Assembly: GCA_964439805.1 (NCBI GenBank)
Contig: CAYTOI010000002.1
Location: 47,489-111,488 of the forward strand
Reading direction: 5' to 3'
DNA length: 64,000 nucleotides
Source: an uncultured Pseudomonadales bacterium
Lineage (GTDB): Bacteria; Patescibacteriota; Microgenomatia; UBA1400; MFAQ01
Below the pieces are notes generated by a model. That model saw only the letters and a list, made by a program, of their open reading frames with translations, was not told the origin of the DNA and searched no databases. The position numbers and the translations under genes were made by a program. Below are positions 2,885 to 56,728 of this stretch, one piece after another; position 1 is the stretch's first letter; each line of letters opens with the position of its first letter.

Positions 2885-2886
2885 AG

Positions 2887-40870: not shown

Positions 40871-40900
40871 AAATGTAACCTCACCTTGAGTTCTTGATTT

Positions 40901-42034: not shown

Positions 42035-42036
42035 GG

Positions 42037-42110
42037 AGCCGAAGGTCGGACTCGAACCGACCACCTGCTGTTTACGATACAGCTGCTCTACCAGATGAGC
42101 TACTTCGGCT
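42037..42110 (-). tRNA. tRNA-Thr (anticodon CGT), CCA encoded (42034-42036)
   Basis: Hand-folded: acceptor GCCGAAG/CTTCGGC, D GCTC/GAGC, anticodon stem GCTGT/ACAGC loop ATCGTAA, T GTCGG/CCGAC loop TTCGAGT. Confidence 0.8.
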
Positions 42111-42178
42111 TAAGGGTATTTTAACTGAAACTAGAGCCAAAGTGCTAAAATAGCGCATACTTTAAATTTGGAGGCTAG

Positions 42179-42475
42179 ATGAGTTATCAAAAAGTACTTT
42201 TTGGCACAGCTTTGGACCGCAATCAGTTGTTAGATTTATTTTTAGGTAGGGGTGACATCCAAGTTGCTCACGAAGGACAATTGATCACAGTTTACGGAAT
42301 TAATGATAGACATGTTCTTCGCGAGGTTGAAGATGGAGAACTTCATACTGTTAATATCATCGGTATGTCAGCTAGCGATAAGGTAGGCTTGGTGGACGGT
42401 CAAGGTACCTTAAAGCTAAACAATTCCAACAAAGACTTGTTTATACTTAATTTAGAAATAAATCTGCACGACTAG
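42179..42475 (+). CDS. hypothetical protein (98 aa)
   Basis: ORF only. Confidence 0.4.
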   Translation: MSYQKVLFGTALDRNQLLDLFLGRGDIQVAHEGQLITVYGINDRHVLREVEDGELHTVNIIGMSASDKVGLVDGQGTLKLNNSNKDLFILNLEINLHD

Positions 42476-42510
42476 TAGGATTAATTAATTGCCTAATCAA
42501 ATAAACATCT

Positions 42511-42535
42511 ACCTCTGGAAGCCCAGAGGTTTTTT
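42511..42535 (+). terminator. rho-independent terminator
   Basis: CCTCTGG-aagc-CCAGAGG + TTTTTT. Confidence 0.65.
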
Positions 42536-42537
42536 AT

Positions 42538-43200
42538 TTAAATTTTTGGCAAACTGAGCTTCAATCCACTAAATAGAATATTTGGATTCTTTCCAATCAC
42601 TGTTCTGTTTGCCCAGTATATCTTGGTCCACTTAAAACCATCTCCATAAGCGCGCACAGATATTGTCCAGAGAGAGTCACCCTTCAGTGTGGTGTAAGTA
42701 TCTACATCAATTGTTCCAGACTCTTTTGTTTTTGTCTCAACAGCAACCTCATTTTTTGGAGCAACTGCCTTAGCCTCTTCTTTTTCCATTACAGTAATCT
42801 TCTTTGCTTCTACTTTTGGCATCTTTAGTTCTTGCCCAACTTCTATATTTCCTTTGGCAGAAAGTTTGTTTTCCTTGATGATATCAACATAATTGTATCC
42901 AGACTTGTAGTATTTTTCTGAGATGTGCCAAAGATCATCCCCCTTAACTACTTTATAGGTATCTCCGCCCGGTAAATAGGCCTTTTTACTATCTTCAAGA
43001 GAAATTGTGGCTGGTTCAGTCTCAGAAAGTAGACTACCTTTCCAGATTTTTAAATTCGCTGTTTTGAAGTAATTTATCATCATTCCAGCCACCAAAAAAA
43101 CCACTACTATGCCCAGTAGCGTGCTAAAACGATCTTCGTTTACTTTGAAAAATTTTAGGATATCTTTTATCCTTGTATCTGAACTCTGTCCTTTATTCAT
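42538..43200 (-). CDS. membrane-anchored protein with two LysM domains
   Basis: YKVVKGDDLWHISEKYY... and YTTLKGDSLWTISVRAYGDGFKW...; N-terminal TM. Confidence 0.75.
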   Translation of the reverse strand: MNKGQSSDTRIKDILKFFKVNEDRFSTLLGIVVVFLVAGMMINYFKTANLKIWKGSLLSETEPATISLEDSKKAYLPGGDTYKVVKGDDLWHISEKYYKSGYNYVDIIKENKLSAKGNIEVGQELKMPKVEAKKITVMEKEEAKAVAPKNEVAVETKTKESGTIDVDTYTTLKGDSLWTISVRAYGDGFKWTKIYWANRTVIGKNPNILFSGLKLSLPKI

Positions 43201-43304
43201 AACTCCATCTTATATAGAAATATATAAATGTCAACAACTAGCCATGGAAGCAGGAAAATCCTATAGAATGGTGTAAAATATGCTATAGAAGAAATCCTTA
43301 ATAT

Positions 43305-43691
43305 TTGGAGGTAATTGTGGCAAATGAAGTTGATTTGACTATTGATGAGAAGAATGAAGCTTTGGACAAAATTTTAAGATATTTAAAACAGAATGCTCTT
43401 GAGAACATTAGTAGTAAGGTTGAAGATGGGATCGAGCATTATAGTGCTAGTTTTGTAGACCAAAAAAGTATAGGTTTTAGTTTTGTGTGTAGTGCATACA
43501 AAGACAACGGTCCAGAACACGGCCGGTTTGGTATTCGCATGGTTGATATAGCCATCAGCTGGGAAAGTTACTACACAGTTATCGAGTCTGGCGGCGGCGA
43601 GATATATAACAAAATCAGAGAACTTGTAGGCAGCTTGGCAACATATTGTCGCACCCACAACTTAGAAGCAAGAAGTCATCTCCTAGGCTAG
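43305..43691 (+). CDS. hypothetical protein (128 aa)
   Basis: ORF only. Confidence 0.45.
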   Translation: MEVIVANEVDLTIDEKNEALDKILRYLKQNALENISSKVEDGIEHYSASFVDQKSIGFSFVCSAYKDNGPEHGRFGIRMVDIAISWESYYTVIESGGGEIYNKIRELVGSLATYCRTHNLEARSHLLG

Positions 43692-43715
43692 TTTTAGTCA
43701 GTAGATAAATAAAGT

Positions 43716-43740
43716 CCCCCTCATTTGAGGGGGATTTTTC
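43716..43740 (+). terminator. rho-independent terminator
   Basis: CCCCCTCA-tt-TGAGGGGG + ATTTTT. Confidence 0.6.
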
Positions 43741-43743
43741 ATA

Positions 43744-43773
43744 GCCAGCCTGCTGGGACGATTTTTGAACCTA
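43744..43773. repeat. tRNA-Asp 3'-end-derived repeat, copy 1 (AGCCAGCCTGCTGGGACGATTTTTGAACCT)
   Basis: Alignment by eye with reverse complement of tRNA-Asp 3' end GCGAGGCTGATGGGATTCGAACCC and with copies 3-5. Confidence 0.5.
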
Positions 43774-43932
43774 CTTAAACTCAATTAAACCTACTCTAAA
43801 TCTCTCTATCTAGGCACAAATAGCCCTATAGCATAGACTTTTGAACAAATTCTTGGTATAATTAAGCACAATTGATATTGATTTTATCAATCGACGTGCA
43901 CCTTAAATTTATTCCAGACTCAGGAGAAACCC

Positions 43933-44553
43933 ATGAAATACAGACCATTTAAACCGTTTTTTAGTTGGCTTTACGAGTTGTACATTATGATCAGTTTGAA
44001 AAATCAAGGTTACGGTGAAGAGCTGGCAAGATCCGTGATCGGCTATAGTCCAAAAGATGTCCCCTATGTATACAGCACGGATCCAAGCTATCCAAATAAC
44101 GGCACGCTTAAGTCCGAACTTTGGATGGGATCAGTAGTCAGTAAGGAAGAGCTGGTAGGAGTATGGTCCGATCAAATTCCTGAGGTTATTGTCCAATGGC
44201 GAGGTCACACTCCCATCAAAGGCAGTGTTTGTGGCAAGAGAGAGGTCAACAGACTAGAAGTTCACCACTTAGGTGACGGTTCATTTGTTCAGCTTGAATT
44301 TCGGAATGTATCTGATACGGGAGCTTTTGACGGCAAGCTTAAATATTTGGACCTGTACAAGCTTAAAGAGGAAACTAATTATTCTGGAAAGCTGTGCAAA
44401 GAATACTCTATTCACAAAATTCACCGAGTTGGTGTAAGGTGGGTGGTTGACTTGGGATTTTCCAGCTTCTCAGGCACGACCATGCTCAATGCATGGCAGG
44501 AAATTCTGCAATTTCGGGTGAACACATACATGATCAAGCCAGACATCAAATAA
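43933..44553 (+). CDS. hypothetical protein (206 aa), cassette gene
   Basis: AGGAGAAACCC-ATG RBS. Confidence 0.5.
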   Translation: MKYRPFKPFFSWLYELYIMISLKNQGYGEELARSVIGYSPKDVPYVYSTDPSYPNNGTLKSELWMGSVVSKEELVGVWSDQIPEVIVQWRGHTPIKGSVCGKREVNRLEVHHLGDGSFVQLEFRNVSDTGAFDGKLKYLDLYKLKEETNYSGKLCKEYSIHKIHRVGVRWVVDLGFSSFSGTTMLNAWQEILQFRVNTYMIKPDIK

Positions 44554-44556
44554 TTT

Positions 44557-44778
44557 ATGGACGAAAAAAGGAGACTAATGTCAGCAACAGAAGAGTTCAT
44601 TCGTGTTATGGGATTTATATTGGGGCCGATTTTAACTCCAATTGTGTTTGTAGGCTCTGGGGTTGCGTTTACGGCCGATCAACCAAATTACACCCACACA
44701 GTTGTATTGTTTCTGATGGGTGTAGCAATGCTGGTAATTACAATTATCAGCCATTATGATTTTTGGAAGAAAAAGTAA
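44557..44778 (+). CDS. small membrane protein (73 aa, 2 TM)
   Basis: Hydrophobicity; starts 3 nt after previous stop. Confidence 0.4.
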   Translation: MDEKRRLMSATEEFIRVMGFILGPILTPIVFVGSGVAFTADQPNYTHTVVLFLMGVAMLVITIISHYDFWKKK

Positions 44779-44950
44779 AAAGTAGTAATGTAAAGACCTC
44801 ATCTCTAAAGATGGGGTCTTTTTTTAGACCAAAAAGTACATATCTAGCCACAAACACCCCATAACTAGACAATATGCAGGTCTATAGGTATAATACGCAC
44901 ATAGGATTAGTTTCTACTATTACATTCACAAAATATTGGAAGGAGTAAAA

Positions 44951-45307
44951 ATGGATTTAGCATCCGTAAGTGTCATATTGAATATTGTTATGGCGGTGGT
45001 TTCTCTCTATTATCGGAACATAAGAAGTTTGGAAGTAAATATAGTAAAATTTTTACTGGCAACAGGTCTATTTTTTGTTGCAGCTTTTAGAGGAGAGATA
45101 TTTTTTGAGATTTTTTGGGGAATACTAATGATTGGATTTCTTTTTGTTATCACTGGTTATCCAGGTGAGTCGAGTACGGTGACAAAAATTGAAGTTCAGG
45201 ATCAGATTCAAAATTCCAATGAGCAAAGCACCTATCAGTGCACACACTGCCAAACTTTCTCGAAAGAAAGGATTGGTACTTGTAAGTCATGCGGTGCTCC
45301 TCTTTAA
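44951..45307 (+). CDS. membrane protein with C-terminal zinc ribbon (118 aa)
   Basis: AAGGAG 6 nt before ATG 44951; 3 TM; CTHC...CKSC. Confidence 0.5.
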   Translation: MDLASVSVILNIVMAVVSLYYRNIRSLEVNIVKFLLATGLFFVAAFRGEIFFEIFWGILMIGFLFVITGYPGESSTVTKIEVQDQIQNSNEQSTYQCTHCQTFSKERIGTCKSCGAPL

Positions 45308-45322
45308 AAAGAATTAAACTTG

Positions 45323-45349
45323 CCCTCTTAATAAAAAGAGGGTATTTTT
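45323..45349 (+). terminator. rho-independent terminator
   Basis: CCCTCTT-aataaa-AAGAGGG + TATTTTT. Confidence 0.6.
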
Positions 45350-45429
45350 GTGCCAAAAATGCATGTTTTCACCACCAGTACACATACGCTAGGGGTATAC
45401 TTAGGAATAAAAATTAAGACGAGTCTTAG

Positions 45430-45449
45430 TGGACGATATTCGAACCCAA
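45430..45449. repeat. tRNA-Asp T-arm-derived fragment, copy 2 (TGGACGATATTCGAACCCAA)
   Basis: Shares TTCGAACCCA with tRNA-Asp (reverse-complement sense). Confidence 0.35.
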
Positions 45450-45540
45450 ATATACTCAAAATAGGCACAAAATAAAGCCTATAGGTTGAAAAAACTTGAG
45501 AAAGATGATAAGATACTCAATCTCAAACTAAGGAGTTATC

Positions 45541-45840
45541 ATGCAAACATTTAAATATCCGTGGGAAGACTGGCTTACTGCATTGATGCTCAGTCTGCGT
45601 CCTCGCCTTTATATCTACCGCAAGGGTGAGTACAAGAAAGTGGTCGGTCCTGCTCCGTTACTCAACAGTCTCAAAGGAGTTGGCGGTTACTTGGTTATCG
45701 GTGACCAAATTCAGATCGTCTCAGGTCTATACTTCTCAGGAACAAACGCTCTAGGTTCCAACGCTGTGAACGGCTGGACAATCAACGAGATGGAGACGGA
45801 TGCACTTGACGATTCTGACAAAAAGAAATTAGGGCTCTAG
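45541..45840 (+). CDS. hypothetical protein (99 aa), cassette gene
   Basis: AAGGAG RBS. Confidence 0.5.
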   Translation: MQTFKYPWEDWLTALMLSLRPRLYIYRKGEYKKVVGPAPLLNSLKGVGGYLVIGDQIQIVSGLYFSGTNALGSNAVNGWTINEMETDALDDSDKKKLGL

Positions 45841-45953
45841 CCCCCAAACACAAAGAGAAAATCTCCAAGTGCGAGGGGGATTTTCTTTGCCAAAAAAGTT
45901 TGTATCCCATATTTGGCCACAAAAAATCCCTCCACAAGGGAAGGATTTTTCAT

Positions 45954-45987
45954 GGCGAGCCTACTGGGACGATTTTAGAACTTTTAA
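45954..45987. repeat. tRNA-Asp 3'-end-derived repeat, copy 3 (GGCGAGCCTACTGGGACGATTTTAGAACTTTT)
   Basis: Preceded by hairpin + GATTTTTCAT exactly as copy 1. Confidence 0.55.
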
Positions 45988-46045
45988 ACTGCGCAAATGA
46001 GTTATATCTATTTACCTAATATGGCTCTGCTGATACATTTAAGTC

Positions 46046-47959
46046 ATGGCAGAAGTTCAAATAAACCACGAGGTTGAAACAGTAGAGTCGAGGCTAACTA
46101 GCAAATGCATTGACAAATATCTTGATTTTGCGATGGACAATGAGGTCAAATTTCAACACAACAAGGAAGAAATTAAAACACAAGTTCAGGAAATAATAAC
46201 AAAATTTCAAGTTGAACCAGCATTTTTTCGCTCTGTTTTTGGACTTGCAAGACCCATGCTTCTTTTGGGGGTTGCTGATAGATGGATCTCAGCCAAGAAT
46301 TTAGATGAAAAGAAGTATTTGGTTGATTATATGAAGGTTCTTTTTTCAAATGACTTTATCCAAAATACTGATATTGGTCTTGAATTTGGAAAAACTTTCT
46401 CTATAAAAGAAGAAGAAAAAGCGATAATGGGTTATTCTGGTTCCTACGAGTTTGCTTCTGGCTTGTCGACAATAGAATCTGTAAATAGAGAGGGCTGGAG
46501 GAAAAAAAGAGATTTTGCAAACGACGACAACAATACTGACCTAGAAAAAACCGCCTCGCTGATTAACGGGATTAGTATTGATAACCCAGATTCCCAATTA
46601 AGCATTATTCGTAATGAACTCGGTATAACAAAAGAAAACGAACAAGAGTTTAAAGTTAAAGTTTCAAAACTTACAAAGTCAGAAATGGCAAAAAAATTTA
46701 ACGGAACAATTGCTTTCCAAGTTGGTAGCTTGGTATACCTTCCAAATAATTTCAATCAAAGCCTGTTGGAGCATGAATATACTCACTCTCAACAGCTAAA
46801 ATTTAGCTTCGGAGGTGGTCGAGTACTTGGCTCAGCTTTAGGGGAAGCTTTAACAGAATACCAAGTTCAGAAGCCAAAGTATTATGGTGAAGTTAGAAAG
46901 GTTCTTAAAGAGATCGAAAAGGTAATACCAGGATTTATAAATGAACTTAAAGAGTATGGGGTGGTAAAAATAATCTCAAAAGGTGACAAGGTAGTTATGA
47001 AAATGATGCAAGGGTTAGGTGCCTCAACAGCAATTGATGCACTAGCCCTGGCACCAGTTAGCTCAAAGTCTAATATGGCGCAAAACTACTTCCATGGTGG
47101 TAGTTTTTTTAGGAGACCGTATGATGTTTACAAGTCAGTCCACGCATTAGTAGGGAAACAAACTATTGAACAGAAAGATGTAGATTTTAAGGTATTTTCT
47201 TCTCTAGATGCTGAAATATCAAAAGAGACAGAAAGCAAAAGGTTGCAGGCTCATGAAATAGTTGAAAAGTTAAGCGAAATAACTGAATTTGATAAAGTTA
47301 GTATTCAACTTGAAAAGATTATCAGGTTATGGCGAGCAAATAGAGAGGTAACCTCATACGAGTTAAGGAGTTTTATAGAGCAAGTCAGTAAAAAATTCCC
47401 GAACGACTATGAGCAGGTCAGTGAGGTAATATCAAAAACCCTTCTAAGTGATGCTTCGGGCAATAAATACTACTTTGAATCATTTGTAAAAGATCCAAAT
47501 TTAAACCTTATGCTAATTTTGTTAAATAATGATGATCAAAAAAGTAACGAATTTGTTCGCAACTTATATACTGATTTATTAAGAAAATCTTCAACTAGTA
47601 ATAACAGCCAAATTATTGACTATGTCTCGTCACTCAGTAGTTTTTCCACTCCTGAATTTTTCGCAATACATGGTACTGAAGCAATTAATATGGCTTTAGA
47701 GACATCCAAATCAAATCCTGAAGATCGGTATGTGTATTTATCCTTCATTGAAGAAGTCCTAAAAAAGAATCTATTGGATAGTTTGAAAACAGAGGATAGG
47801 TCGGTGGCAATAGAAAAGCTGCAGTCCATATATAACAACATTGTAAAAACGCCAAGTGACATGTTCAAGAAATACACCAAGCCAGAAGAACTAGAAAAAA
47901 TACTCGTTTCAATAAAACAAAAAAAGAAAGAAGTATTACATCAAATGCTCAGTGAGTAG
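46046..47959 (+). CDS. large hypothetical protein (637 aa) with zincin-like HExxH..QQ motif (DUF4157-like)
   Basis: LEHEYTHSQQ at ~aa 250; otherwise no similarity recognised; sole gene of its cassette. Confidence 0.5.
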   Translation: MAEVQINHEVETVESRLTSKCIDKYLDFAMDNEVKFQHNKEEIKTQVQEIITKFQVEPAFFRSVFGLARPMLLLGVADRWISAKNLDEKKYLVDYMKVLFSNDFIQNTDIGLEFGKTFSIKEEEKAIMGYSGSYEFASGLSTIESVNREGWRKKRDFANDDNNTDLEKTASLINGISIDNPDSQLSIIRNELGITKENEQEFKVKVSKLTKSEMAKKFNGTIAFQVGSLVYLPNNFNQSLLEHEYTHSQQLKFSFGGGRVLGSALGEALTEYQVQKPKYYGEVRKVLKEIEKVIPGFINELKEYGVVKIISKGDKVVMKMMQGLGASTAIDALALAPVSSKSNMAQNYFHGGSFFRRPYDVYKSVHALVGKQTIEQKDVDFKVFSSLDAEISKETESKRLQAHEIVEKLSEITEFDKVSIQLEKIIRLWRANREVTSYELRSFIEQVSKKFPNDYEQVSEVISKTLLSDASGNKYYFESFVKDPNLNLMLILLNNDDQKSNEFVRNLYTDLLRKSSTSNNSQIIDYVSSLSSFSTPEFFAIHGTEAINMALETSKSNPEDRYVYLSFIEEVLKKNLLDSLKTEDRSVAIEKLQSIYNNIVKTPSDMFKKYTKPEELEKILVSIKQKKKEVLHQMLSE

Positions 47960-47991
47960 TCCCATTTTTACATATCTGGACATGACTCACC

Positions 47992-48090
47992 AGGCTCGTT
48001 ACGAGACTAGTTCCGGCAGTTCGAATCCCATACCAACAAACTAAAAATCTCGGCACAAGGCCGAGACTTTTACTTGCGAGCCTGATGGGA
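47992..48090. repeat. ~100-bp repeat X (inverted T-arm fragment GTTCGAATCCCATACCA + hairpin/terminator module + att copy); paralog of 49781-49880
   Basis: Direct comparison: ...GTTCGTTACGA(G/A)ACT...GTTCGAATCC(C/T)ATACCAA(C/T)AAACTAAAAATCTCGGCACAAGGCCGAGACTTTTACTTGCGAG(C/G)CTGATGGGA. Confidence 0.6.
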
Positions 48091-48108
48091 CAATTTTAGA
48101 ACTTTTCC
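48076..48108. repeat. tRNA-Asp 3'-end-derived repeat, copy 4 (GCGAGCCTGATGGGACAATTTTAGAACTTTTCC)
   Basis: 15/16 identity with tRNA-Asp acceptor/T-stem segment. Confidence 0.6.
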
Positions 48109-48173
48109 AGCGCAAAACTAACAATTTCGCCAACAAAAAAACTCGCCCATTGCTGAACGAGTCTGTGACACCA

Positions 48174-48485
48174 TTATTTCGTTTCAGTTACTTCTTTCGA
48201 AACCTGGATTTGATTTGAGTACACACGCCAAAGCGTGTATTTCTTCCCTTTGTACTCAACTGTTGATCCATAGTCAGAGTTCTTTACTGGTAATTCATCG
48301 TAGTTTTTGTATTCAAGGTTCCATGTCGTTCGGGTCCCACCAACAAAAACATCCCACGAATTGTCACCTTCGACAAGGACAATATTCTTTGGCGATTCCT
48401 GGTCGTTGCTATGCATAAAGAATGGAACCAGCAATAAAGCTACCAAAATAGTCCCGACACACAATTCGAAAAGTCCAATTTTCAT
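48174..48485 (-). CDS. hypothetical secreted/membrane-anchored protein (103 aa)
   Basis: AGGAGAG RBS before ATG 48485; N-terminal TM. Confidence 0.45.
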   Translation of the reverse strand: MKIGLFELCVGTILVALLLVPFFMHSNDQESPKNIVLVEGDNSWDVFVGGTRTTWNLEYKNYDELPVKNSDYGSTVEYKGKKYTLWRVYSNQIQVSKEVTETK

Positions 48486-48505
48486 AATCTCTCCTGTCAG
48501 TATTT

Positions 48506-48796
48506 TTACCAAAACTTGATGTGAAGTGAGACAATGAGCGCCCACAACCCAAGATTGATGATAGCGGGTCCAAATGGCTCAAAATATGCATCTACAAAGC
48601 CAACCCACTCGCCGAATGCCAGCTTGTTTGCCAGGGAAAACATTCCCCAGTTTACGGAAAACAAAAGGATTAGTACACATAGCAGTGATTTCAAAGTGTT
48701 TGGCATCGGTATCGGTGTAATCATTCCAACCGCCAAGCCGACAATTATGTCAAGTAAAGCCAGTACTATAAAGAACTTTTTCAAGGTAGCCTCCAA
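48506..48796 (-). CDS. membrane protein (96 aa, 3 TM), TTG start within repeat
   Basis: GGAGGCTACC-TTG shared with gene at 49615. Confidence 0.45.
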   Translation of the reverse strand: MEATLKKFFIVLALLDIIVGLAVGMITPIPMPNTLKSLLCVLILLFSVNWGMFSLANKLAFGEWVGFVDAYFEPFGPAIINLGLWALIVSLHIKFW

Positions 48797-48880
48797 GCTA
48801 ACGAAATTAGATTTGAATAGGGAATTCTAGCACAAAACCACCCAAAAATCAACTACTATAGGATCAATGCGAGCCTAATG
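48781..48880. repeat. ~100-bp promoter/RBS-bearing repeat, copy a (includes att copy 5 and minus-strand promoter TTGATT-17-TAGAAT)
   Basis: ~85% identical to 49611-49710. Confidence 0.6.
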
Positions 48881-48900
48881 GGACGGTTTTAGTACTTTCT
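48869..48900. repeat. tRNA-Asp 3'-end-derived repeat, copy 5 (GCGAGCCTAATGGGACGGTTTTAGTACTTTCT)
   Basis: As above. Confidence 0.55.
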
Positions 48901-48967
48901 CAGCACGAAATCTTAAAATTTAGCCAATAAAAAGCCCTGAACCAATTATGGTCCAGGGCTTGTTTTC

Positions 48968-49615
48968 CTACTTGTAATTTTCTTCGCTTTCCTGTGTCAA
49001 TAGTTCCGAGAACAACAGCATCTCAATCATTTCTGGATCAGGATCTACACGACACCAACGATCTAAGGTATAACGAACCACCTTTTTTGATACAACGGGC
49101 TTTCCAACCATTTCTGGGGAGCTACCAATTTCCCTGAAAACAAAAGTGGCGTTATCTCTCCACTCAGGATGAGGTTCATGTGCCCACTCAGGATGATCTA
49201 CAAACGGTTGAAGTGCTGGGTAATAAGGGGGAGAGGTCAACGCACGAGCCCTAGCTATTCCAATCACGAATACATCCCTGGAGATGTACAACCCATCTCT
49301 TACCTTTCGGCAGTTGTGGATGTTCATAAGGCGCTGTTCTTCAGAATCAAATACATACTCTACAGCAAATTTCTTTGATAGAAATGCCTTTGCAGAGTCC
49401 ATATTAAAGGGGATCGGGTAGAAGGAAATCAATAATTCCTGAGACAAATGGCGCCGAATTTTTGTCGTATCCATAAGAACCTCAGAATCATTTGTTAATG
49501 AGTATGCAACGGTAATTCCTCCAGACTTATCAGATAAAACGATGTCGGCCTCAAACATGCGGGCTAGATCAATATCTTCTCTGAGATCATTCGAACTTGC
49601 AATAAATATTTTCAA
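48968..49615 (-). CDS. hypothetical protein (215 aa), TTG start within repeat
   Basis: GGAGGCTACC-TTG; ORF only. Confidence 0.45.
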   Translation of the reverse strand: MKIFIASSNDLREDIDLARMFEADIVLSDKSGGITVAYSLTNDSEVLMDTTKIRRHLSQELLISFYPIPFNMDSAKAFLSKKFAVEYVFDSEEQRLMNIHNCRKVRDGLYISRDVFVIGIARARALTSPPYYPALQPFVDHPEWAHEPHPEWRDNATFVFREIGSSPEMVGKPVVSKKVVRYTLDRWCRVDPDPEMIEMLLFSELLTQESEENYK

Positions 49616-49710
49616 GGTAGCCTCCTAGCTAATGAATTTAGATTTGAATGTCCAATTTTAGCACAAAACCATCCAAAAATCAACTACTATAGGATCAATG
49701 CGAGGCTGAT
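49611..49710. repeat. ~100-bp promoter/RBS-bearing repeat, copy b (includes att copy 6 GCGAGGCTGATG and promoter TTGATT-17-TAAAAT)
   Basis: See copy a. Confidence 0.6.
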
Positions 49711-49780
49711 GCTTGTCCACCTGTGGCGGAGGAGGATTCACCTTCGGTCGAACTACGTTCGCCTCAGGACCGGTCTCAGC

Positions 49781-49880
49781 AGGTTCGTTACGAAACTGCT
49801 TCCGACTGTTCGAATCCTATACCAATAAACTAAAAATCTCGGCACAAGGCCGAGACTTTTACTTGCGAGGCTGATGGGAT
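49781..49880. repeat. ~100-bp repeat Y (paralog of 47992-48090) including minus-strand terminator hairpin 49836-49862 downstream of tRNA-Asp
   Basis: See X. Confidence 0.6.
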
Positions 49881-49939
49881 TCGAACCCACGACCTTCTCC
49901 GTGACAGGGAGACGCGCTAACCAACTGCGCTACAGCCCC
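49866..49939 (-). tRNA. tRNA-Asp (anticodon GTC)
   Basis: Hand-folded: acceptor GGGGCTG/CAGCCTC, D GCGC/GCGC loop AGTTGGTTA, anticodon stem TCTCC/GGAGA loop CTGTCAC, T GTGGG/CCCAT loop TTCGAAT. Confidence 0.85.
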
Positions 49940-50095
49940 AACAAGCTATATTCTAAGGCCAAAAGACCATATTTGCCATACTAAAATGCGTATTGGCACA
50001 ATTTCTGTTAAAATACCCTTAGTTAAATCATCTTAACTTTTTAATTTGGTTCCCTGGTGATGATGGCCATGGGGTAAGCAAGAAAGGAGCCAGAA

Positions 50096-50377
50096 ATGGC
50101 TGTTCGTTTATACGTAGGGAATCTACCCTACAATATTACTCAATCTAGACTACAGGAGGTATTTTCACCTTTTGGAGCCCTTGGTGAAGTAACTGTTATT
50201 TCAGACAAGTTCTCAGGCAGAAGTAAAGGCTTTGGATTCGTAGAATTCGAAGACGCAGAAGCTGCTAAAAGTGCTATTGAAAAAATGAATGGTGCCGACC
50301 TCGATGGCCGCAACATCATCGTTAATGAAGCTCGACCAAAAGAAGAGCGCCCAGACCGATCATTCGGTGGACGCTAG
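50096..50377 (+). CDS. RNA-binding protein (single RRM domain)
   Basis: RNP2 LYVGNL, RNP1 KGFGFVEF; AAGGAG RBS. Confidence 0.85.
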   Translation: MAVRLYVGNLPYNITQSRLQEVFSPFGALGEVTVISDKFSGRSKGFGFVEFEDAEAAKSAIEKMNGADLDGRNIIVNEARPKEERPDRSFGGR

Positions 50378-50405
50378 TCTCCAATCGATTTAATTATCAC
50401 AAAAA

Positions 50406-50427
50406 ACCCGCTTAGGCGGGTTTTTTG
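50406..50427 (+). terminator. rho-independent terminator
   Basis: ACCCGC-ttag-GCGGGT + TTTTTT. Confidence 0.7.
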
Positions 50428-50453
50428 GTGCTAAAATTTATCCAATACGCTCA

Positions 50454-50732
50454 ATGAACACCTTTTTTAGCCTTTTAATTATTTTTTCTTTAACCTTCTC
50501 CTATTTGATTATTGTATTTAATAGGCTTCAACAAACACTTAATAATCTTAGCCATACCAAAGTAGACATAAAAACTTTCCAAAACAAAACAGATTCTATT
50601 TCTCAAGAAAAATTCATTTATTCCACCAGGGTACAAAAAAACTTAGAACTTGAATTAAGCACTATGCTCAAAAGATCTGACTATCAGCTGATGCTTCACT
50701 TTTTGAAGTCGCACCCAGAAATAAAAAGATAA
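50454..50732 (+). CDS. small membrane protein (92 aa)
   Basis: N-terminal TM. Confidence 0.4.
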   Translation: MNTFFSLLIIFSLTFSYLIIVFNRLQQTLNNLSHTKVDIKTFQNKTDSISQEKFIYSTRVQKNLELELSTMLKRSDYQLMLHFLKSHPEIKR

Positions 50733-50740
50733 GAAAACAA

Positions 50741-52090
50741 ATGATCAGTTTAAAAATTAGTAAGCTCCAAAAAAGCTACAACCAACCACTTTTGGACGAT
50801 ATTACCTTTAACCACGTAGGAGAAGGTGTGGTGGCACTAATTGGTGATAACGGCTGCGGCAAATCAACTTTGTTAAAGATTTTAGCTGGGTTAGATCAGC
50901 AAGATGGGGGAAAGTTTGAGTGGGGAGGAACCCTAAGAATTGGTTACTTGACACAAGAGATTGAAAGTTTACCTACTCTTTCTGGAGGCCAAAAGAAAAT
51001 TAGTTTGCTTGCCGATCTCTTTTATTCTGGCGAATACGACGTGTTACTTCTCGATGAACCAGACAATCATCTGGATATCCAAAACAAACAGTGGCTCGCC
51101 TCAGCTATTAAGGATTTTGGTGGTCTGGTAATAATGATTTCGCACGACCGACATTTGTTGAAACAAATTTCAAACTATACCTGGCTAGTAGAGGATAGAG
51201 AAGTTCGCACCTATCCCTTTGGCTACGGCAAGTTTGTAGTTGAATATCAAAAAGAAACCGAGAGCATGGAAAAGCTTTTTAGTGTTCAAGAAAAAGAACA
51301 CAAGAGACTGGCGGCTCTTGTAGATGTTTTTCGCCAAAGAGCAGCCAGTGGTCCCAAGGCTGCCAGATACTTTCACGCTCTGGAAAAGCGCTTGGCCAGA
51401 TTTGAAGCCGAAATGGTGAACGACCCCAAGAAGAAAGATGTCAAAATTCTTCTCAATACCAAAACTTCTAGCAAGCAAATAAAAAACAAGCTTTCTGTGT
51501 TGGTCAGAAACTTAAGCTTTTCTTATGGAGAAACAGAAATCTTCAAAGACGCCGACTTTTTTATGGAAGTAGGGGATAAGGTAGCACTTGTTTCACCCAA
51601 TGGCACTGGAAAATCTACTTTAATAAAACTAATTTTAGGATTTCTCAGCCCTGATCAGGGTACAGCAAGAGTCGGCGAAAATCTTAAAGTTGGTTATTAC
51701 TCTCAAGAACACTTGGAAACACTTCCTGCAGAAGGCACTCCAATATCTGTCTTTACTAGCCGCTTCCCCATAGCCGACTACGATGCTGCTGCAGTTTTGA
51801 AAAAGTTTTATTTCAGCAAGCAAACAATAAAGTCAAAAATTTGGACGCTCTCTGGTGGCCAAAAAGCAAGATTGCAATTGGCTCTTTTTCTCTATACCAA
51901 CCCCGACGTTTTAATTTTGGACGAGCCAACTAACCATTTGGACATTCGTTCCGTTACTGCCCTGGAGGAATTTTTGGTGGACTACGCGGGCTCCATTTTG
52001 CTCATTTCTCACGACCACGATCTCCTAAACACTGTTTGCGACGTGGCCTACGCTGTAAAAAATCAAAAAATCACCCTAACTGAAATTTAG
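50741..52090 (+). CDS. ABC-F-type ATPase (two tandem nucleotide-binding domains, no membrane domain); first NBD shortened
   Basis: Walker A GDNGCGKST and SPNGTGKST, signatures LSGGQKKI and LSGGQKARL, Walker B LLLDEP and LILDEP. Confidence 0.75.
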   Translation: MISLKISKLQKSYNQPLLDDITFNHVGEGVVALIGDNGCGKSTLLKILAGLDQQDGGKFEWGGTLRIGYLTQEIESLPTLSGGQKKISLLADLFYSGEYDVLLLDEPDNHLDIQNKQWLASAIKDFGGLVIMISHDRHLLKQISNYTWLVEDREVRTYPFGYGKFVVEYQKETESMEKLFSVQEKEHKRLAALVDVFRQRAASGPKAARYFHALEKRLARFEAEMVNDPKKKDVKILLNTKTSSKQIKNKLSVLVRNLSFSYGETEIFKDADFFMEVGDKVALVSPNGTGKSTLIKLILGFLSPDQGTARVGENLKVGYYSQEHLETLPAEGTPISVFTSRFPIADYDAAAVLKKFYFSKQTIKSKIWTLSGGQKARLQLALFLYTNPDVLILDEPTNHLDIRSVTALEEFLVDYAGSILLISHDHDLLNTVCDVAYAVKNQKITLTEI

Positions 52091-52107
52091 TCTGATAAAA
52101 TTGGTCT

Positions 52108-52416
52108 GTGTCCAAAGTAATCGTCACTGCAGATGAGGTCAAAAAAATAGCCAAGCTGGCTAGCCTTACCCTGCAAAACAACCAAGAGGATCTCTTTGCT
52201 GAGCAGTTCACCGACACCCTCGAAGTAGTCAAAAAACTAGATCAGCTCGACACTACAGTAGTTACCGGCACTTACCAAGTAAACTCCTTGCAAAACGTTA
52301 CCCGAGAAGATGTTGTCGACTCAGAAAGAATTCTTCCCCAATCAGTAGCCATAAGAGAGGCAAAAATTACCTACAATGGTTATTTTGTCGTTCCTCGCCT
52401 TATCGATAACTCATGA
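52108..52416 (+). CDS. gatC: Asp/Glu-tRNA amidotransferase subunit C (GTG start)
   Basis: Position before gatA/gatB, size, ...VKKIAKLASL...; GTG at 52108. Confidence 0.75.
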   Translation: MSKVIVTADEVKKIAKLASLTLQNNQEDLFAEQFTDTLEVVKKLDQLDTTVVTGTYQVNSLQNVTREDVVDSERILPQSVAIREAKITYNGYFVVPRLIDNS

Positions 52417-53837
52417 AAGAACTTCACCAACTAACAATCAAAGAAATCCACAAAGGGTACTCCGAAGGAAATTTTACTTGCGAACAACTTGTTCGCCATT
52501 TTCTTGCCCGGATAGAAAAATATAATTCCAAACTGAATATTTATTTGAGCCTAAACAAAAATGCTTTAAACGAAGCCGTAAAAGTTGACTTGGAAATAAA
52601 AGAAAACGGAATCACCAAACCTCTTCAAGGAATTCCCTTTGCTGTCAAAGATAACTTTTTGACGGTAGGAATGGAAACAACTGCTAGTAGTAATGTTCTT
52701 AAAGGCTACTTCCCCCAATACGAGTCTACGGTAACAAAAAAAATTCTCGATGCCGGTGCCATTATCTTGGGCAAAACCAATATGGACTCTTTTGCCCATG
52801 GAAGTAGTACCGAAACTTCTGACTTCGGACCAACTCTTAACCCTTGGAACCCTGAACACCTTCCTGGTGGCTCTTCCGGTGGATCGACAGCTGCAATTTC
52901 TGCAGAGCTGGCTATAGCAGCCCTAGGATCCGAAACAGCCGGCTCTATTCGCCAACCCTCCGCTTGGGTAGGAGTTACCGGCTTCAAACCCACCTACGGC
53001 CGTTCTAGCCGCTACGGTGTTATCTCTATGGCTAGCTCTACAGACACTCCTGGCCCCATAGCCAAAAACGTCGAAGACTGCGCTATTGTCACCGAAGTTA
53101 TAGCCGGGAAGGACAACAAAGACGCCACCAGCTCACCCAAAGAAGTATTGGACTATTCCAAGTTGCTAAACAAAAAAGATCTTAAAGGTGTAAGAGTAGG
53201 GCTTATTTCTGAATACTTATTAAATGACATGTCCGAAGAGGTAAAAACTTTAATAAAAAATGCAGCAGAAAAATTTAAATCCCTTGGCGCTACCGTAGAA
53301 AATGTTTCCTTAATGGACCCCCAATACTCAATTGGAGTTTATACCGTACTTCAGCGATCTGAAGTGAGTTCTAACCTTGCCCGTTTCGACGGCATTCGTT
53401 TTGGTCACCCCAGAACTGTCTTTAATGAAGAAAACAAACGAAGAATAATGCTCGGAACATATACTCTTTCAGCAGGTTACTACGATGCCTTTTACAAAAA
53501 GTCACTTGCGGTAAGAACTCAAATAATCGAAGATTTTGCCAAAGCATTTGAATCATTTGATGTTTTGATTGGTGCTGTTTCCCCGGGGCCAGCTCTCAAA
53601 ATTGGCGCCAGTAAAAACCAACCCATGTTTGGAGAGATGGAAGATGTCCTGGTAGAGGCCAGCTCAATTGCCGGACTAACTAGTATTTCTGTCCCTTGTG
53701 GTTTTGTAGACGATCTTCCCATTGGTCTGCAGATTACCGGTAATCATTTTGAGGAAGAAAAAGTATTGTCTATAGCCAAAGTATTTCAAGATTCTACTGA
53801 TTTTGTTAAGTTCCCAGATTTAGAAAAAACCTTATGA
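52413..53837 (+). CDS. gatA: Asp/Glu-tRNA amidotransferase subunit A (amidase signature)
   Basis: GGSSGGS, amidase Ser-cisSer-Lys region, ATGA overlap with gatC. Confidence 0.9.
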   Translation: MKELHQLTIKEIHKGYSEGNFTCEQLVRHFLARIEKYNSKLNIYLSLNKNALNEAVKVDLEIKENGITKPLQGIPFAVKDNFLTVGMETTASSNVLKGYFPQYESTVTKKILDAGAIILGKTNMDSFAHGSSTETSDFGPTLNPWNPEHLPGGSSGGSTAAISAELAIAALGSETAGSIRQPSAWVGVTGFKPTYGRSSRYGVISMASSTDTPGPIAKNVEDCAIVTEVIAGKDNKDATSSPKEVLDYSKLLNKKDLKGVRVGLISEYLLNDMSEEVKTLIKNAAEKFKSLGATVENVSLMDPQYSIGVYTVLQRSEVSSNLARFDGIRFGHPRTVFNEENKRRIMLGTYTLSAGYYDAFYKKSLAVRTQIIEDFAKAFESFDVLIGAVSPGPALKIGASKNQPMFGEMEDVLVEASSIAGLTSISVPCGFVDDLPIGLQITGNHFEEEKVLSIAKVFQDSTDFVKFPDLEKTL

Positions 53838-55150
53838 CCATCACACCTTTAATCGGCCTCGAAGTCCATGTAGAGCTAGAAACAAAATCCAAAATGTTTT
53901 GTGGTTGTCCTGCAGATCATTTTGGCAAAGAACCAAATACTCAAACCTGTCCAGTGTGTCTTGGCCTTCCTGGTGCTCTGCCAGTACCAAACAAAAAAGC
54001 CATTGAAAGTTGTATTCAAATTGGCTTGGCTCTAAACTGTGAAATAAACAAAAACAGTAAGTTCGATAGAAAACAATATTTTTACCCAGACCTTTCCAAA
54101 GGGTATCAAATAAGTCAGTACGATGAACCATTTTGCTCCGAAGGCTTTATTCATTTGGATTCCGGTAAAAAAATTGGCATCGAAAGAGTCCATCAAGAAG
54201 AAGATACCGGCAAACTTCAGCACACTATCTTAGAAGGAGAAAAAGTCAGTCTTGTAGACTTCAACAGATCCGGTGTTCCACTAGTAGAAATTGTTTCCAA
54301 GCCAGACATGAGCTCTAGTGAAGAAGCAAAAGAGTACCTCAAAAAAATTCACGAAATAATCAGAGCCTTGGGTGTTTCTAGCGCCGATATGGACAAGGGT
54401 CAAATGAGACTAGAACCAACAGTAAACGCCAAAATTGAAAAAGATGGTGAGACTTTCTACACTCCACTGGCAGAAATAAAAAACATCAACTCCTTTAACT
54501 TTGTTGCCTCAGCAATTGAGTTTGAGGTTAAACGCCAAGTGAAAGAATGGGAAGAAACAGGAGTGGTAAAAACAGCAACCAACAAAACTACCAGGGGCTA
54601 CGACTCGGTCAAAAAAGTAACCTTTTTGCAAAGAACCAAAGAAGAGGCCAAGGACTATAGATACTTCCCGGAGCCAGACATTCCACCCTTTGTCATAGAA
54701 AAAGATTATGTTGAAAAGCTTCGATCTGAACTTCCCAAACTTCCCGCAGAAATTATTTCAGATTTGGAGTCACTTGGTGTAGAAAATAAATACGCCAAAA
54801 TAATTGCCTCAAGCGAAGAATTGCTTTCCATAATTAGCTTGTTTAAAAACGACACTGAGATAGAAACTAGTAAGCTCGCAAGTGCTCTAGTAAATAAAAA
54901 AATCCGCACCGAAGACGACATCAAAGCGCAGTACCTCACAATCACCAAGGTGGGCAACACCAATACAGACGAACTAAAATCAATTGTCATGAAGATTGTA
55001 GAAGCCAACCCTGGCCCAGTGGCGGAATACAAAAAAGGCAAAACCAATATCGCTGGCTTCTTTGTCGGCCAGGCCATGAAAGAATCAAAAGGAACGGCTT
55101 CTCCACAGGTATTAGCCGAAATCGTGGCTAAATTGCTCTCAGAAATTTAA
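53834..55150 (+). CDS. gatB: Asp/Glu-tRNA amidotransferase subunit B
   Basis: IGLEVHVEL...KMFCGCPA..., GatB/YqeY C-terminal domain. Confidence 0.9.
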   Translation: MTITPLIGLEVHVELETKSKMFCGCPADHFGKEPNTQTCPVCLGLPGALPVPNKKAIESCIQIGLALNCEINKNSKFDRKQYFYPDLSKGYQISQYDEPFCSEGFIHLDSGKKIGIERVHQEEDTGKLQHTILEGEKVSLVDFNRSGVPLVEIVSKPDMSSSEEAKEYLKKIHEIIRALGVSSADMDKGQMRLEPTVNAKIEKDGETFYTPLAEIKNINSFNFVASAIEFEVKRQVKEWEETGVVKTATNKTTRGYDSVKKVTFLQRTKEEAKDYRYFPEPDIPPFVIEKDYVEKLRSELPKLPAEIISDLESLGVENKYAKIIASSEELLSIISLFKNDTEIETSKLASALVNKKIRTEDDIKAQYLTITKVGNTNTDELKSIVMKIVEANPGPVAEYKKGKTNIAGFFVGQAMKESKGTASPQVLAEIVAKLLSEI

Positions 55151-55240
55151 CCCATAATAAAGTAAATTGGTTGTTGACAATATCCGATAAAAATTTGCTA
55201 TAATATCTAAGCAAGTTAAAATCTTTTTTAGGAGTGTAGA

Positions 55241-55570
55241 ATGCCAGGAAAAAAGCCAATTCCAATTAAGACAGAAACACTGATCGAGCTTTACCGTGGG
55301 AAAGTAGCACCGTTTAAATCCGATAATGAAATCAACCAGCTCGGAGCTCAGATTACTCAGATCAAAAATTTCTCTCACACAAACACGGCGCATCAGCTGG
55401 CTCTTCAAGCTATTCTTGGGAAGCAGTGCGAATGGCTTATTTGTCTGGGCTTCAATCGTAAAGATTATGATGCCTGGATGGACAATTTGAAGGAGAATCA
55501 CGGCGAAACTCAGCTTATTACCCCCGCTGATCCGCAACCAGAAGAAGAAACTTCGGAAGTTCTTGCTTAA
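55241..55570 (+). CDS. hypothetical protein (109 aa)
   Basis: Upstream TTGACA...TGcTATAAT promoter-like (55176-55209), GGAG RBS. Confidence 0.45.
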   Translation: MPGKKPIPIKTETLIELYRGKVAPFKSDNEINQLGAQITQIKNFSHTNTAHQLALQAILGKQCEWLICLGFNRKDYDAWMDNLKENHGETQLITPADPQPEEETSEVLA

Positions 55571-55602
55571 CTCCTAATCTATAGATATCTTAATAAAACC
55601 GA

Positions 55603-55631
55603 AGGGCTCTCATTGCGAGAGTCCTTTTTTT
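55603..55631. terminator. terminator hairpin (likely bidirectional) between convergent genes
   Basis: GGGCTCTC-attgc-GAGAGTCC + TTTTTTT; A-run upstream. Confidence 0.6.
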
Positions 55632-55932
55632 ATGCCAAAAATTTCTTCAAGTCAATTTTCATGCCCACAATTTCTACACCTTCATTTCTGAGCAATACAA
55701 TTTTTCTGGCCACTTCTTCCCCAGCTTGTTTCCCCATAAACCCTCCCACAGACCCATCACTCTTAACTACTCTATGACATGGTACTTCTGGTGCATAAGG
55801 ATTATTTTTTAGTGCGCTTCCTACTGCTCTATACGCTTTGGTTCCCAGAGATTCTGCTAGTTTTTTGTATGTCGTTACCTTACCCTTTGGCACTTTTCTT
55901 AGCTCTTCATAAACTCTTTCCGTAAAGGTCAT
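55630..55932 (-). CDS. ogt: methylated-DNA-protein-cysteine methyltransferase (Ogt/MGMT DNA-binding domain)
   Basis: VPCHRVVKSDGSVGGF active-site motif. Confidence 0.85.
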   Translation of the reverse strand: MTFTERVYEELRKVPKGKVTTYKKLAESLGTKAYRAVGSALKNNPYAPEVPCHRVVKSDGSVGGFMGKQAGEEVARKIVLLRNEGVEIVGMKIDLKKFLA

Positions 55933-55954
55933 TTTTTTAATATATCATTAAATT

Positions 55955-56728
55955 GTGAACATCCCAAAAATCGGACTTGGAACATGGAATATCAAAACAG
56001 ATGACTTGGTAAATATAATTCCTGAAGCTATAAAACTAGGCTATAGACATTTTGATACCGCCAGAAAATATAGCAACGAAGAGGGAGTCGGAGAGGGGAT
56101 TAGAAAATCAGGAATTGCTAGAAAAGATGTTTTTATTACCACCAAACTTTGGATCACTGATTTTCTAAGAACAAAAAACGCCTTTGAGGCAAGTCTGGAA
56201 AGACTGCAAATGGATTATGTCGATCTTTATATTATTCACTGGCCATTCCCCTTCTGGACCAAAGCTTGGGTAGAGCTAGAAAAAATTTATAAATCTGGCA
56301 AGGCCAAAAATATAGGAGTGAGTAACTTCGGTATCAAAGATCTCGAGTTTATAAAAAATCACTATAAAATTATTCCTGCCGTAAACCAAATAGAGTTCAG
56401 CCCTTTCTTTTACAAAAAAGAGTTAATTGAGTACTGCCAAAAAGAGGGAATTCAGGTGGAGGCATACAGTCCGCTAACTAGGGGATACCGACTAGATGAT
56501 CCCAAAATTCAAGTAATTGCCGATAAGTACCAAAGAACTATTCCTCAAATATTACTTGCTTGGTGTCTGCATCATAATCTTGTCATCCTCCCAAAATCCA
56601 CCACCAAAGAACATCTTAAAGAGAACTTTGAATCTCAAAATATTAAGCTATTAAAGCCTGACATGGAGTACCTAGACTCACTTAACGAAAACTACTCCGC
56701 CCTCAGTACCTTTTGGAGTAAAAAGTAG
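55955..56728 (+). CDS. aldo/keto reductase
   Basis: IGLGTW...GYRHFDTARKY..., IHWP, typical AKR motifs. Confidence 0.85.
   Translation: MNIPKIGLGTWNIKTDDLVNIIPEAIKLGYRHFDTARKYSNEEGVGEGIRKSGIARKDVFITTKLWITDFLRTKNAFEASLERLQMDYVDLYIIHWPFPFWTKAWVELEKIYKSGKAKNIGVSNFGIKDLEFIKNHYKIIPAVNQIEFSPFFYKKELIEYCQKEGIQVEAYSPLTRGYRLDDPKIQVIADKYQRTIPQILLAWCLHHNLVILPKSTTKEHLKENFESQNIKLLKPDMEYLDSLNENYSALSTFWSKK

Follow-up and report, generated by a model that had tools for sequence, protein, structure and literature searches.

The cis-mobilizable elements (CIMEs) of streptococcal integrative and conjugative elements (ICEs) are flanked by attachment (att) sites, carry no recombinase and depend on a helper, and phage morons are self-contained inserts consisting of a promoter, a gene and a terminator. 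The tycheposons of Prochlorococcus form flexible islands at tRNA genes whose units are split by partial tRNA copies; newcomers push the older units inward, and some of these elements use a large serine recombinase (bioRxiv 10.1101/2020.12.28.424599). Integrons and the clusters of attC sites lacking integrases (CALIN) hold mostly single-gene cassettes between repeated sites, their arrays can be free of an integrase, and some of the cassettes bring a promoter (PMC4889954). In a survey of putative mobile promoters (Matus-Garcia et al. 2012), tRNA was the commonest Rfam match and was linked to the integration sites of islands (PMC3488235). Bacteria of the candidate phyla radiation (CPR, Patescibacteria) have tiny genomes with few known mobile elements, and how they gain and test genes is poorly understood. 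Here we analyse a stretch of 64,000 nucleotides (nt) from a Candidatus Collierbacteria genome (CPR, Microgenomates), hereafter the window, in which two direct repeats of about 100 nt lie in an array of small genes next to the gene for tRNA-Asp(GTC). We consider it probable that each repeat forms the leading end of one of two adjacent cassettes in a hypervariable array at the 3' end of this tRNA gene, and that the cassettes are exchanged at copies of the tRNA tail.

Both repeats belong to an interval of 6.2 kb (43.7-49.9 kb) that is bordered by a conserved 128-aa gene and by tRNA-Asp(GTC) and holds small ORFs only. The tRNA gene is intact (49865-49939, minus strand; ARAGORN, and 71.8 bits with the Rfam tRNA model), and the sequence copied across the array corresponds to its last ~15 nt, which read GCGAGGCTGATGGGA on the plus strand (49865-49879). 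The tail pattern GCGAGSCTNMTGGGA occurs five times in the window, where 0.39 occurrences are expected, and each time inside the 43.7-49.9 kb interval; further copies are truncated (49700) or degenerate (near 45421). The array thus described has five or six tail copies within 6 kb, found at 49700, 48869, 48076, 45955, ~45421 and 43744, and they share direct orientation. The sequences of the junctions do not occur elsewhere in the window. The cassettes between the tail copies occupy either strand; a promoter and a terminator are predicted for each of them, and predicted terminators are in excess (20 against 5.7 expected).

The direct repeat itself comprises positions 48778-48880 and 49609-49711, which align over 103 nt without a gap at 89% identity (repeat family D2). 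A 29-mer taken from it occurs exactly twice in the 64 kb (0.00 expected), as does a 15-mer (0.11 expected). Measured from the tRNA-tail copy to the start codon, the two modules, A (48778-48883) and B (49609-49711), are 87% identical over 106 nt. Both are read on the minus strand and have the same layout: a tRNA-tail copy, TTGATCCTATAGTAG, the -35 hexamer, 17 nt, the -10 hexamer, a leader of ~38 nt, GGAGGCTACC and the start TTG-AAA. The 3' end of tRNA-Asp is TCCCATCAGCCTCGCA, and the tail copy of module A, TCCCATTAGGCTCGCA (48883 to 48868), agrees with it at 14 of 16 positions, that of module B, CATCAGCCTCGCA (49711 to 49699), at 13 of 13. In module A the -35 hexamer TTGATT (48852 to 48847), preceded by TTGATCCTATAGTAG, is followed by the -10 hexamer TAGAAT (48829 to 48824), the GGAGG of the ribosome-binding site (RBS; 48794 to 48790) and the TTG start (48784 to 48782). 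The corresponding elements of module B are TTGATT (49683 to 49678), likewise behind TTGATCCTATAGTAG, TAAAAT (49660 to 49655), GGAGG (49625 to 49621) and TTG (49615 to 49613). In both modules the 17-nt spacer terminates in TGC, i.e. an extended -10, and a promoter scan flags both. The similarity between A and B stops directly after TTGAAAA. Folding of the 5' untranslated region (UTR) is no better than that of shuffled sequence (z-scores -0.3 to +0.5). The initial annotation had described the repeat as holding an att copy, a promoter, a 5' UTR and a TTG start in minus orientation, and this structure is real, at 87-89% identity.

The first half of the module recurs far beyond the two repeats. The unit CTCGCA-TTGATCCTATAGTAG-(-35)-17 nt-(-10) is present in 10 in-register copies across five genomes, and the genes behind these copies belong to at least eight unrelated protein families; this in-register recurrence in front of unrelated families indicates that the promoter belongs to the cassette boundary. 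Across the 10 copies, the information content of the alignment columns is high over the stretch from tail copy to -35 and once more at the -10, with intermediate values in the spacer and low ones downstream; such a profile is the footprint expected of a working promoter, and from it we infer that transcription would start at the predicted promoter. The spacing is 17 nt in 23 of the 24 instances that bear the motif. Sigma-70-type promoters have their two hexamers 16-18 nt apart and a transcription start behind them; in the 10 copies the hexamers and the TG extension keep their register while the bases around them vary. A junction type of opposite orientation, TAGGCACAAAA...CCTATAG-(-35)-17-(-10), heads cassettes across tail copies, and at three junctions (in the genomes L001, L011 and L013) both types face outward 68 nt apart. 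CCTATAG itself occurs six times in the 6.2-kb array and seven times in the other 58 kb, which makes it about ten times denser in the array, and within the window the combination of motif and promoter is confined to the array. The same motif is also seen ahead of flexible genes elsewhere. As a candidate for a general housekeeping promoter element, CCTATAG was rejected for the window, where the motif-plus-promoter pattern is found in the array only.

Comparison with related loci (given by L numbers) places recombination breakpoints at the tail copies. In L001, L010, L011 and L013 the flanks are kept, namely tgt and a LysM gene on one side and tRNA-Asp, a protein with an RRM domain and an ABC-F gene on the other, the tRNA-Asp gene is intact with units separated by tail copies, and the genes between the tail copies are different. 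More distant relatives (L018, L019, L021) have a shorter variable interval with few or zero tail copies. In L013 there is a single site, at which CACAAAAATAAAA is joined to GCGACCCTTACGGGATGCG; in L011 the same left flank is joined to GCGAGACTATTGGGATGG, which opens a 1.42-kb block that includes a core-promoter cassette, and GCGACCCTTACGGGATGCG is reached again behind TTTTTCATG. The block is flanked by direct tail copies, and only GCGA (4 nt) is common across the switch point, not enough for homologous recombination. L010 has two copies of a 67-aa cassette, which are identical in gene, terminator and trailing arm as far as ...CCTCGCA and unrelated past it. Finally, L008 has, between two copies of CATCAGCCTCGC, a unit made up of a terminator and a structured element, X (described below); L001, L002 and L006 lack this unit, and in them the tRNA tail directly abuts TTTCATTTTTGTGCG. 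Three independent comparisons therefore break exactly at the tail copy, which supports its role as a recombination boundary. That the tail is a used integration point in this lineage is further evident from L005, where an element has been integrated exactly there: its gene for a 523-aa large serine recombinase (1972-3608) has its TGA stop inside the tRNA-Asp 3' end (...TTGCGAGGCTGA).

The second half of the module behaves differently. Full-length copies are limited to A, B and one in L001 (3782-3888), which is 94% identical to module A and 83% to module B. The homologous gene starts behind B and the L001 module share 59% of their nucleotides and 46% of their amino acids over 88 residues; the identity of the modules (83-94%) thus exceeds both that of the gene behind them (59%) and that of the housekeeping flank (76.7%). 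The L001 module is nearest to A, yet it heads a homolog of the 215-aa protein encoded behind B. The other seven of the 10 core-promoter copies differ in UTR, RBS and start codon alike. Behind the same promoter type, GGAGGCTNCYTTGAAAAT is found with relatives of the 215-aa protein in L001, which also has the tail copy, and in L022, L023 and L024, the loci of the three (out of ten) relatives that were looked up. The latter three are away from tRNA-Asp and have no intact tail copy; here CCTATAA-(-35)-17-(-10)...GGAGGCT(A/G)C(T)TTGAAAAT precedes the 215-aa homologs, i.e. a TTG-AAA-AT start. As leader, RBS and TTG are present in these genomes without the site, the leader half belongs to the 215-aa gene family, and the 5' UTR-GGAGGCTACC-TTG-AAA is, on this comparative evidence, the native leader of that family and not a property of the site. 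It had been proposed earlier that the whole expression module travels with the recombination site and not with the gene. This holds for the tail copy and promoter (~55 nt) and has to be given up for the 5' UTR-GGAGGCTACC-TTG half. The suggested search for further modules ahead of other genes did yield a third full copy, the one in L001, which precedes a 215-like homolog rather than a new gene. The initial annotation had also named, as the outcome that would speak against it, a repeat restricted to the two sites in the window with no adjacent att copy elsewhere; the L001 module has an adjoining tail copy.

The sole mismatch between leader and gene is module A, which precedes a 92-aa gene. Judged from these alignments, module A is best explained as a recent copy of the leader behind which the coding sequence has been replaced, and this would also be the direction of capture. 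The first codons of the 92-aa gene (MK.F.I) may be a remnant of the original coding sequence. A mirror case is seen in L010, where the two copies of the 67-aa gene (600-1100 and 2676-3176; 98.5% aa identity) have unrelated 5' UTRs with the break at the start codon, and are 100% identical from ~45 nt into the gene to the tail copy. At the other end, a terminator unit (GTTYGATCC...AGAGAGCCGACCTAAWTACTGGTCGGCTTTTTATTGGCAAAA) is shared between L022 (4790-4867) and L010 (941-1017 and 3008-3084) at 88% identity behind unrelated open reading frames (ORFs), with the similarity beginning ~12 nt ahead of the stop codon. Both cases indicate that cassette ends are reused with different ORFs, be it that rare illegitimate events were selected, that conserved ends were exchanged homologously, or that a dedicated mechanism is at work. 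We also observed post hoc that the sequence from RBS to start, AGGCTACCTTGA (48790-48782 and 49621-49613, minus strand), is similar to the site sequence AGGCTCGCATTGA, in which the tail copy is joined to the opening bases of the leading arm; the core-like RBS sequence is GGAGGCTACCTTGAAA. This likeness might mark a secondary exchange point or be a coincidence.

How would such an array work? Read in the orientation of the tRNA, a cassette would begin at a tRNA-tail copy, with the exchange point directly after ...CTCGC(A). A leading arm of ~55 nt would follow, with CCTATAG, the -35, the 17-nt spacer with its TG and the -10, and behind it would come the leader, one or two small genes and a terminator, after which a trailing arm would lead up to the next tail copy. 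With its promoter contained entirely in the leading arm, a cassette would be an independent transcription unit whatever is located upstream. Recombination at the tail copies would add, remove and duplicate cassettes, which would probably also be reassorted by homologous recombination between their conserved ends. As no recombinase is encoded in the arrays, the enzyme is most likely site-specific and supplied in trans, and we infer site-specific exchange by a recombinase of this provenance. A candidate would be a large serine recombinase of the kind found in L005, integrated at the same tRNA.

Several observations weigh against this view of the locus and must be set beside it. A recombinase gene is absent in and next to every array that we examined: among window ORFs of at least 150 aa, a Pfam comparison gave no PF00589 (tyrosine recombinase), and there is no recombinase in the tested ORFs of the L010 and L011 arrays, whose few Pfam matches (DUF6624, ATP-grasp) include no recombinase or replication domain, or in the precomputed gene tables of L001 and L013. 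The sole recombinase of the window, a 556-aa large serine recombinase (14663-16333, plus strand; Resolvase, Recombinase, Zn_ribbon_recom), stands last in a series of small ORFs without annotation, overlaps at its 3' end with a convergent 243-aa ORF, and probably lies in a separate integrated element that extends over roughly 7.6-16.3 kb. Considered as a possible helper of the array, this enzyme is only 21% identical to that of L005, and neither end of its element has similarity to the site. The dyad symmetry of the P-core-P' site is not above that of shuffled sequence, and we therefore draw no conclusion from it as to which of the two kinds of recombinase, serine or tyrosine, would act there. 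The region has no overall enrichment of promoter-like hexamer pairs (23 against 17.2 expected), so that the case for the promoter rests on comparative conservation and not on the match to the consensus. With three full-length modules and one mismatched pairing, the account of leader capture depends on a single event. The sequences come from metagenome assemblies, which repeats could in principle lead astray. In a separate comparison, viral contigs contained no relatives of the serine recombinase of L005.

Could general recombination alone have produced the array? The repeats would then be duplicated mobile promoters and the tail copies inactive relics of old integrations, an explanation that we regard as unlikely, although by no means far-fetched. 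It accords with arrays that have no integrase, with conserved ends that are sufficient for homologous exchange (70-100 nt, 85-95% identity), with breaks that also occur at start and stop codons without a tail copy, and with the presence of the same promoter type and leader away from tRNA-Asp where no tail copy exists; moreover, the module falls under the operational definition of a putative mobile promoter (PMC3488235). It leaves unaccounted for that three independent indel or duplication boundaries coincide exactly with a tail copy, the clearest of them sharing only GCGA, that 5-6 tail copies stand in direct orientation in 6 kb, and that the register between tail copy and -35 is fixed in 10 copies. 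A different proposal extends the mobile unit instead, so that the whole ~100 nt from site to TTG would be a portable module of the recombination site, integron-like with promoter cassettes. The 94% identity of the A and L001 modules in front of unrelated genes, the end of similarity directly after TTGAAAA and the resemblance of AGGCTACCTTGA to the core AGGCTCGCATTGA, which could mark a second exchange point, all speak for it. We find it decidedly improbable, since seven of the 10 core-promoter copies have unrelated UTRs, RBSs and start codons, the leader tracks the 215-like family in five genomes, three of which (L022, L023, L024) lack the site, one mismatched pairing is known, and the mirror-case break in L010 falls at a start codon without any core-like sequence.

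The conserved 55 nt might also serve mainly as a binding site for a regulator or the recombinase, with incidental hexamers and transcription from elsewhere. Inverted TAGG-N11-12-CCTA motifs do flank the site in both module types, and consensus promoter matches are, as stated, not enriched in the region overall; however, the -10 is kept at exactly 17 nt while spacer and downstream sequence vary, an RBS and an ORF follow within 25-80 nt of each module, and terminators close each unit in the excess given above (20 against 5.7), which makes a mere binding site very improbable. An origin of the repeat in misassembly or in a chimeric metagenome bin seems barely credible: the source is a metagenome-assembled contig, and several related contigs end near the LysM side of the variable interval, but independent assemblies that differ in sample and source (ENA, JGI, Logan, NCBI) show the same architecture, and the repeat copies differ at 11-14 positions and are therefore not collapsed reads. 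Exchange of cassettes at the tail copies thus remains the reading that we prefer. A bolder form of it would be a new type of integron-like capture in Collierbacteria, in which integrase-less cassettes at a tRNA-Asp site are moved by a recombinase in trans, perhaps a large serine recombinase, with a promoter arm, element X as folded substrate or guide, and separately exchangeable promoter-leader and terminator units. We hold this to be quite unlikely. If the ends were separately exchangeable at core-like sequences adjoining start and stop codons, this would account for the homology breaks that fall at the start codon in module A and L010 and close to the stop codon in L022/L010.

Element X (49712-49829) is a conserved, structured, non-coding element of ~120 nt that is found directly after the tRNA-Asp terminator. 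Together with this terminator it is bounded by two tRNA-tail copies (CATCAGCCTCGC). Not all genomes have it; L006 and L008 provide the empty and the occupied site, respectively. The fold is a three-way junction in which 14 of 30 pairs covary on both sides and 95.8% of the alignment cells are paired, and none of 500 shuffles was as good. Its outer stem is built from an inverted copy of the tRNA T-loop region. A covariance model scores 139.6 bits at 49712-49829 and 34 bits at a partial copy (47975-48040), and it matches in eight other loci, only downstream of tRNA-Asp. Copies of X lie in L001 (5338-5469 and 3065-3172), L008 (161-302), L010 (525-651), L011 (7472-7577), L014 (329-466), L018 (89-207) and L019 (6023-6125). 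The counts of G-U and A-C pairs, five against three, do not decide its strand, and a 19-mer of X has no occurrence in viral contigs. A fragment of a tRNA or transfer-messenger RNA was considered and rejected, as neither ARAGORN nor Rfam recognises one and the T-arm-like stretch is unable to build a T stem. By its modelled fold, X is a candidate for an undescribed structured RNA or DNA element. An Rfam search of window positions 40000-56000 (E <= 1) gave two tRNAs plus two weak, chance-level matches elsewhere, and nothing for the module, the 5' UTR or X.

The cargo of cassette A consists of two minus-strand ORFs. The first (48506-48784) encodes the 92-aa protein, which is hydrophobic with three hydrophobic segments (grand average of hydropathy 1.26), and the second (48174-48485) a 103-aa protein with an N-terminal hydrophobic segment by hydropathy, behind which the terminator is located (48164 to 48139). 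Cassette B encodes the 215-aa protein (48968-49615, minus strand), predicted by hydropathy to be soluble, and is closed by a minus-strand terminator with a 13-pair stem and a T run (48932-48961) and by the trailing (P) arm GGGACGGTTTTAGTACTTT... (48884-48910; repeat family D3). The P arm is kept at other tail copies (45970-45996 and 48091-48117) with 77-81% identity within family D3. The products had been taken for an unrelated pair of a 96-aa membrane protein and a 215-aa soluble protein; they are indeed unrelated (BLASTP E = 0.22), and the length of the former has to be corrected, as the 96-aa ORF starts at an in-frame TTG which overlaps the Shine-Dalgarno sequence, while the shared TTG gives 92 aa. 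No Pfam, PADLOC or PHROG match was obtained for the 215-aa protein, and the cassette proteins of the window as a whole have no significant match in these collections except one weak PHROG family of unknown function. An exhaustive HMMER search of 1.84 billion representatives found 10 distant homologs of the 215-aa protein, all of which align with residues 1 to ~90 only. These N-terminal ~90 aa form a rare domain, and the C-terminal part differs in each relative (88-267 aa). An exact look-up of the 215-aa protein returned nothing, and a word-based homolog search with the 215-aa and 99-aa proteins returned self plus one match only. In public collections, a 21-mer of the module occurs in two genome contigs, in one metagenome contig and in no viral contig; a Collierbacteria metagenome-assembled genome is among the matches, and homologs of the LysM protein beside the array are likewise assigned to Collierbacteria.

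Directly after tRNA-Asp there is a two-way terminator hairpin (49831-49861) with a stem of 13 pairs on the minus strand and 7 pairs on the plus strand. An older junction (47975-48117), which is 88% identical to 49764-49879 (repeat family D1), contains the partial X (47975-48040), a terminator (48042-48072), the tail copy GCGAGCCTGATGGGA (48076-48090) and a P arm. The tail copy GCGAGCCTACTGGGA with its P arm (45955-45996) is preceded by a terminator (45927-45945). At 45421-45514 (plus strand) a degenerate tail copy (CGAGTCTTAGTGGAC) is followed by ATAGGCACAAAATAAAGCCTATAGG and a predicted promoter, TTGAAA-17-TAAGAT, which would serve the 99-aa gene at 45541-45840. The left edge of the array (43744-43862, plus strand) comprises the tail copy GCCAGCCTGCTGGGA, a P arm and CTAGGCACAAA..CCCTATAG, and the predicted rightward promoter there, TAGACT-17-TATAAT, would serve a 206-aa and a 73-aa gene (43933-44778).

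Beyond the array, the side of tRNA-Asp and the RRM gene (window 49865-50438 against L001 6351-6924) is 99.1% identical, intergenic DNA included, and the LysM side (window 42078-43620 against L001 1-1583) 76.7%. The histories of the two array flanks are therefore very different, and either a recent exchange or an unusual constraint would lie behind this. In the interval between the ABC-F gene and gatC, which in the window is only 18 nt long (52090-52108), L001 (8820-9662) and L002 (3023-3500) have one or two extra small genes behind TAGGCACGTATT...CCTATAGC-TTGCTT-17-TAGAAT; the presence of this promoter argues that the same promoter-tipped units insert at a second locus too. A conserved block of the array in L011 (5575-7080) and L013 (8323-9822) has DUF6624 and an MvdD-type ATP-grasp ligase beside small ORFs, and may represent a small graspetide-type peptide cluster carried as cargo. 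Elsewhere in the window, 17031-26345 is a one-strand run of glycosyltransferase, methyltransferase, acyltransferase, MatE-like and Wzy_C genes, an ordinary surface-polysaccharide cluster.

Taken as a whole, the locus is a compact, recurring platform at a single tRNA gene, where small genes are stacked, swapped and apparently expressed from a promoter at the cassette boundary. Should both the promoter and the recombination prove true, the locus would provide a defined site and short sequences with which to follow gene flow in uncultured CPR bacteria, a candidate for a natural landing pad equipped with a promoter, and a mobile promoter traced to a recombination site together with one event of leader capture.

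Among the systems described at the outset, CIMEs share with the array units the flanking att sites and the lack of a recombinase, and morons share the succession of promoter, gene and terminator. In contrast to both, the arrays are outside prophages and ICEs, and no related helper with matching arms was found. Integrons and CALIN resemble the array in their single-gene cassettes of unknown function that lie between repeated recombination sites in the absence of an integrase. Unlike in integrons, there is no IntI, the cassettes take both orientations, and each has its own predicted promoter and terminator in place of a common promoter (Pc), which in integrons drives cassettes of one orientation that mostly have no promoter. 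The attC sites of integrons are imperfect palindromes with GTTRRRY at the end, recognised as folded single strands. The junctions consist of direct tRNA copies without the inverted repeats of attC-like sites, no dedicated attC model having been run, and the arm GTTCKAAAA does not fit the GTTRRRY of attC. The integron likeness drawn in the initial annotation is thus retained as an analogy with integrase-less cassette clusters, and it does not extend to an integrase, to attC or to a common Pc.

As with the putative mobile promoters, a 103-nt repeat of 87-89% identity precedes genes for unrelated proteins; the survey (PMC3488235) catalogued such cases without describing this architecture. For the present locus we have worked out how the promoter is tied to a specific recombination site, that its register is fixed, and that it recurs in several genomes ahead of many gene families. 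The pattern that the array most closely resembles is that of the tycheposon islands. Both have a streamlined genome, an island at a tRNA gene, units split by partial tRNA copies and cargo of mostly unknown function, and gain and loss at an att repeat, as known from tycheposons, is seen in the L011/L013 indel, in X (L008 against L006) and in the L010 duplicate. An integrase of their own, as tycheposons may have, is not found in the array units, and a large serine recombinase at tRNA-Asp is carried only by the separate element of L005. The units described here differ from tycheposons in their size of 0.8-2 kb with one or two genes, in the lack of an integrase or replication module and in their CPR host. 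Moreover, their junctions are conserved rather than decaying, and the promoter stands in fixed register with the tail copy.

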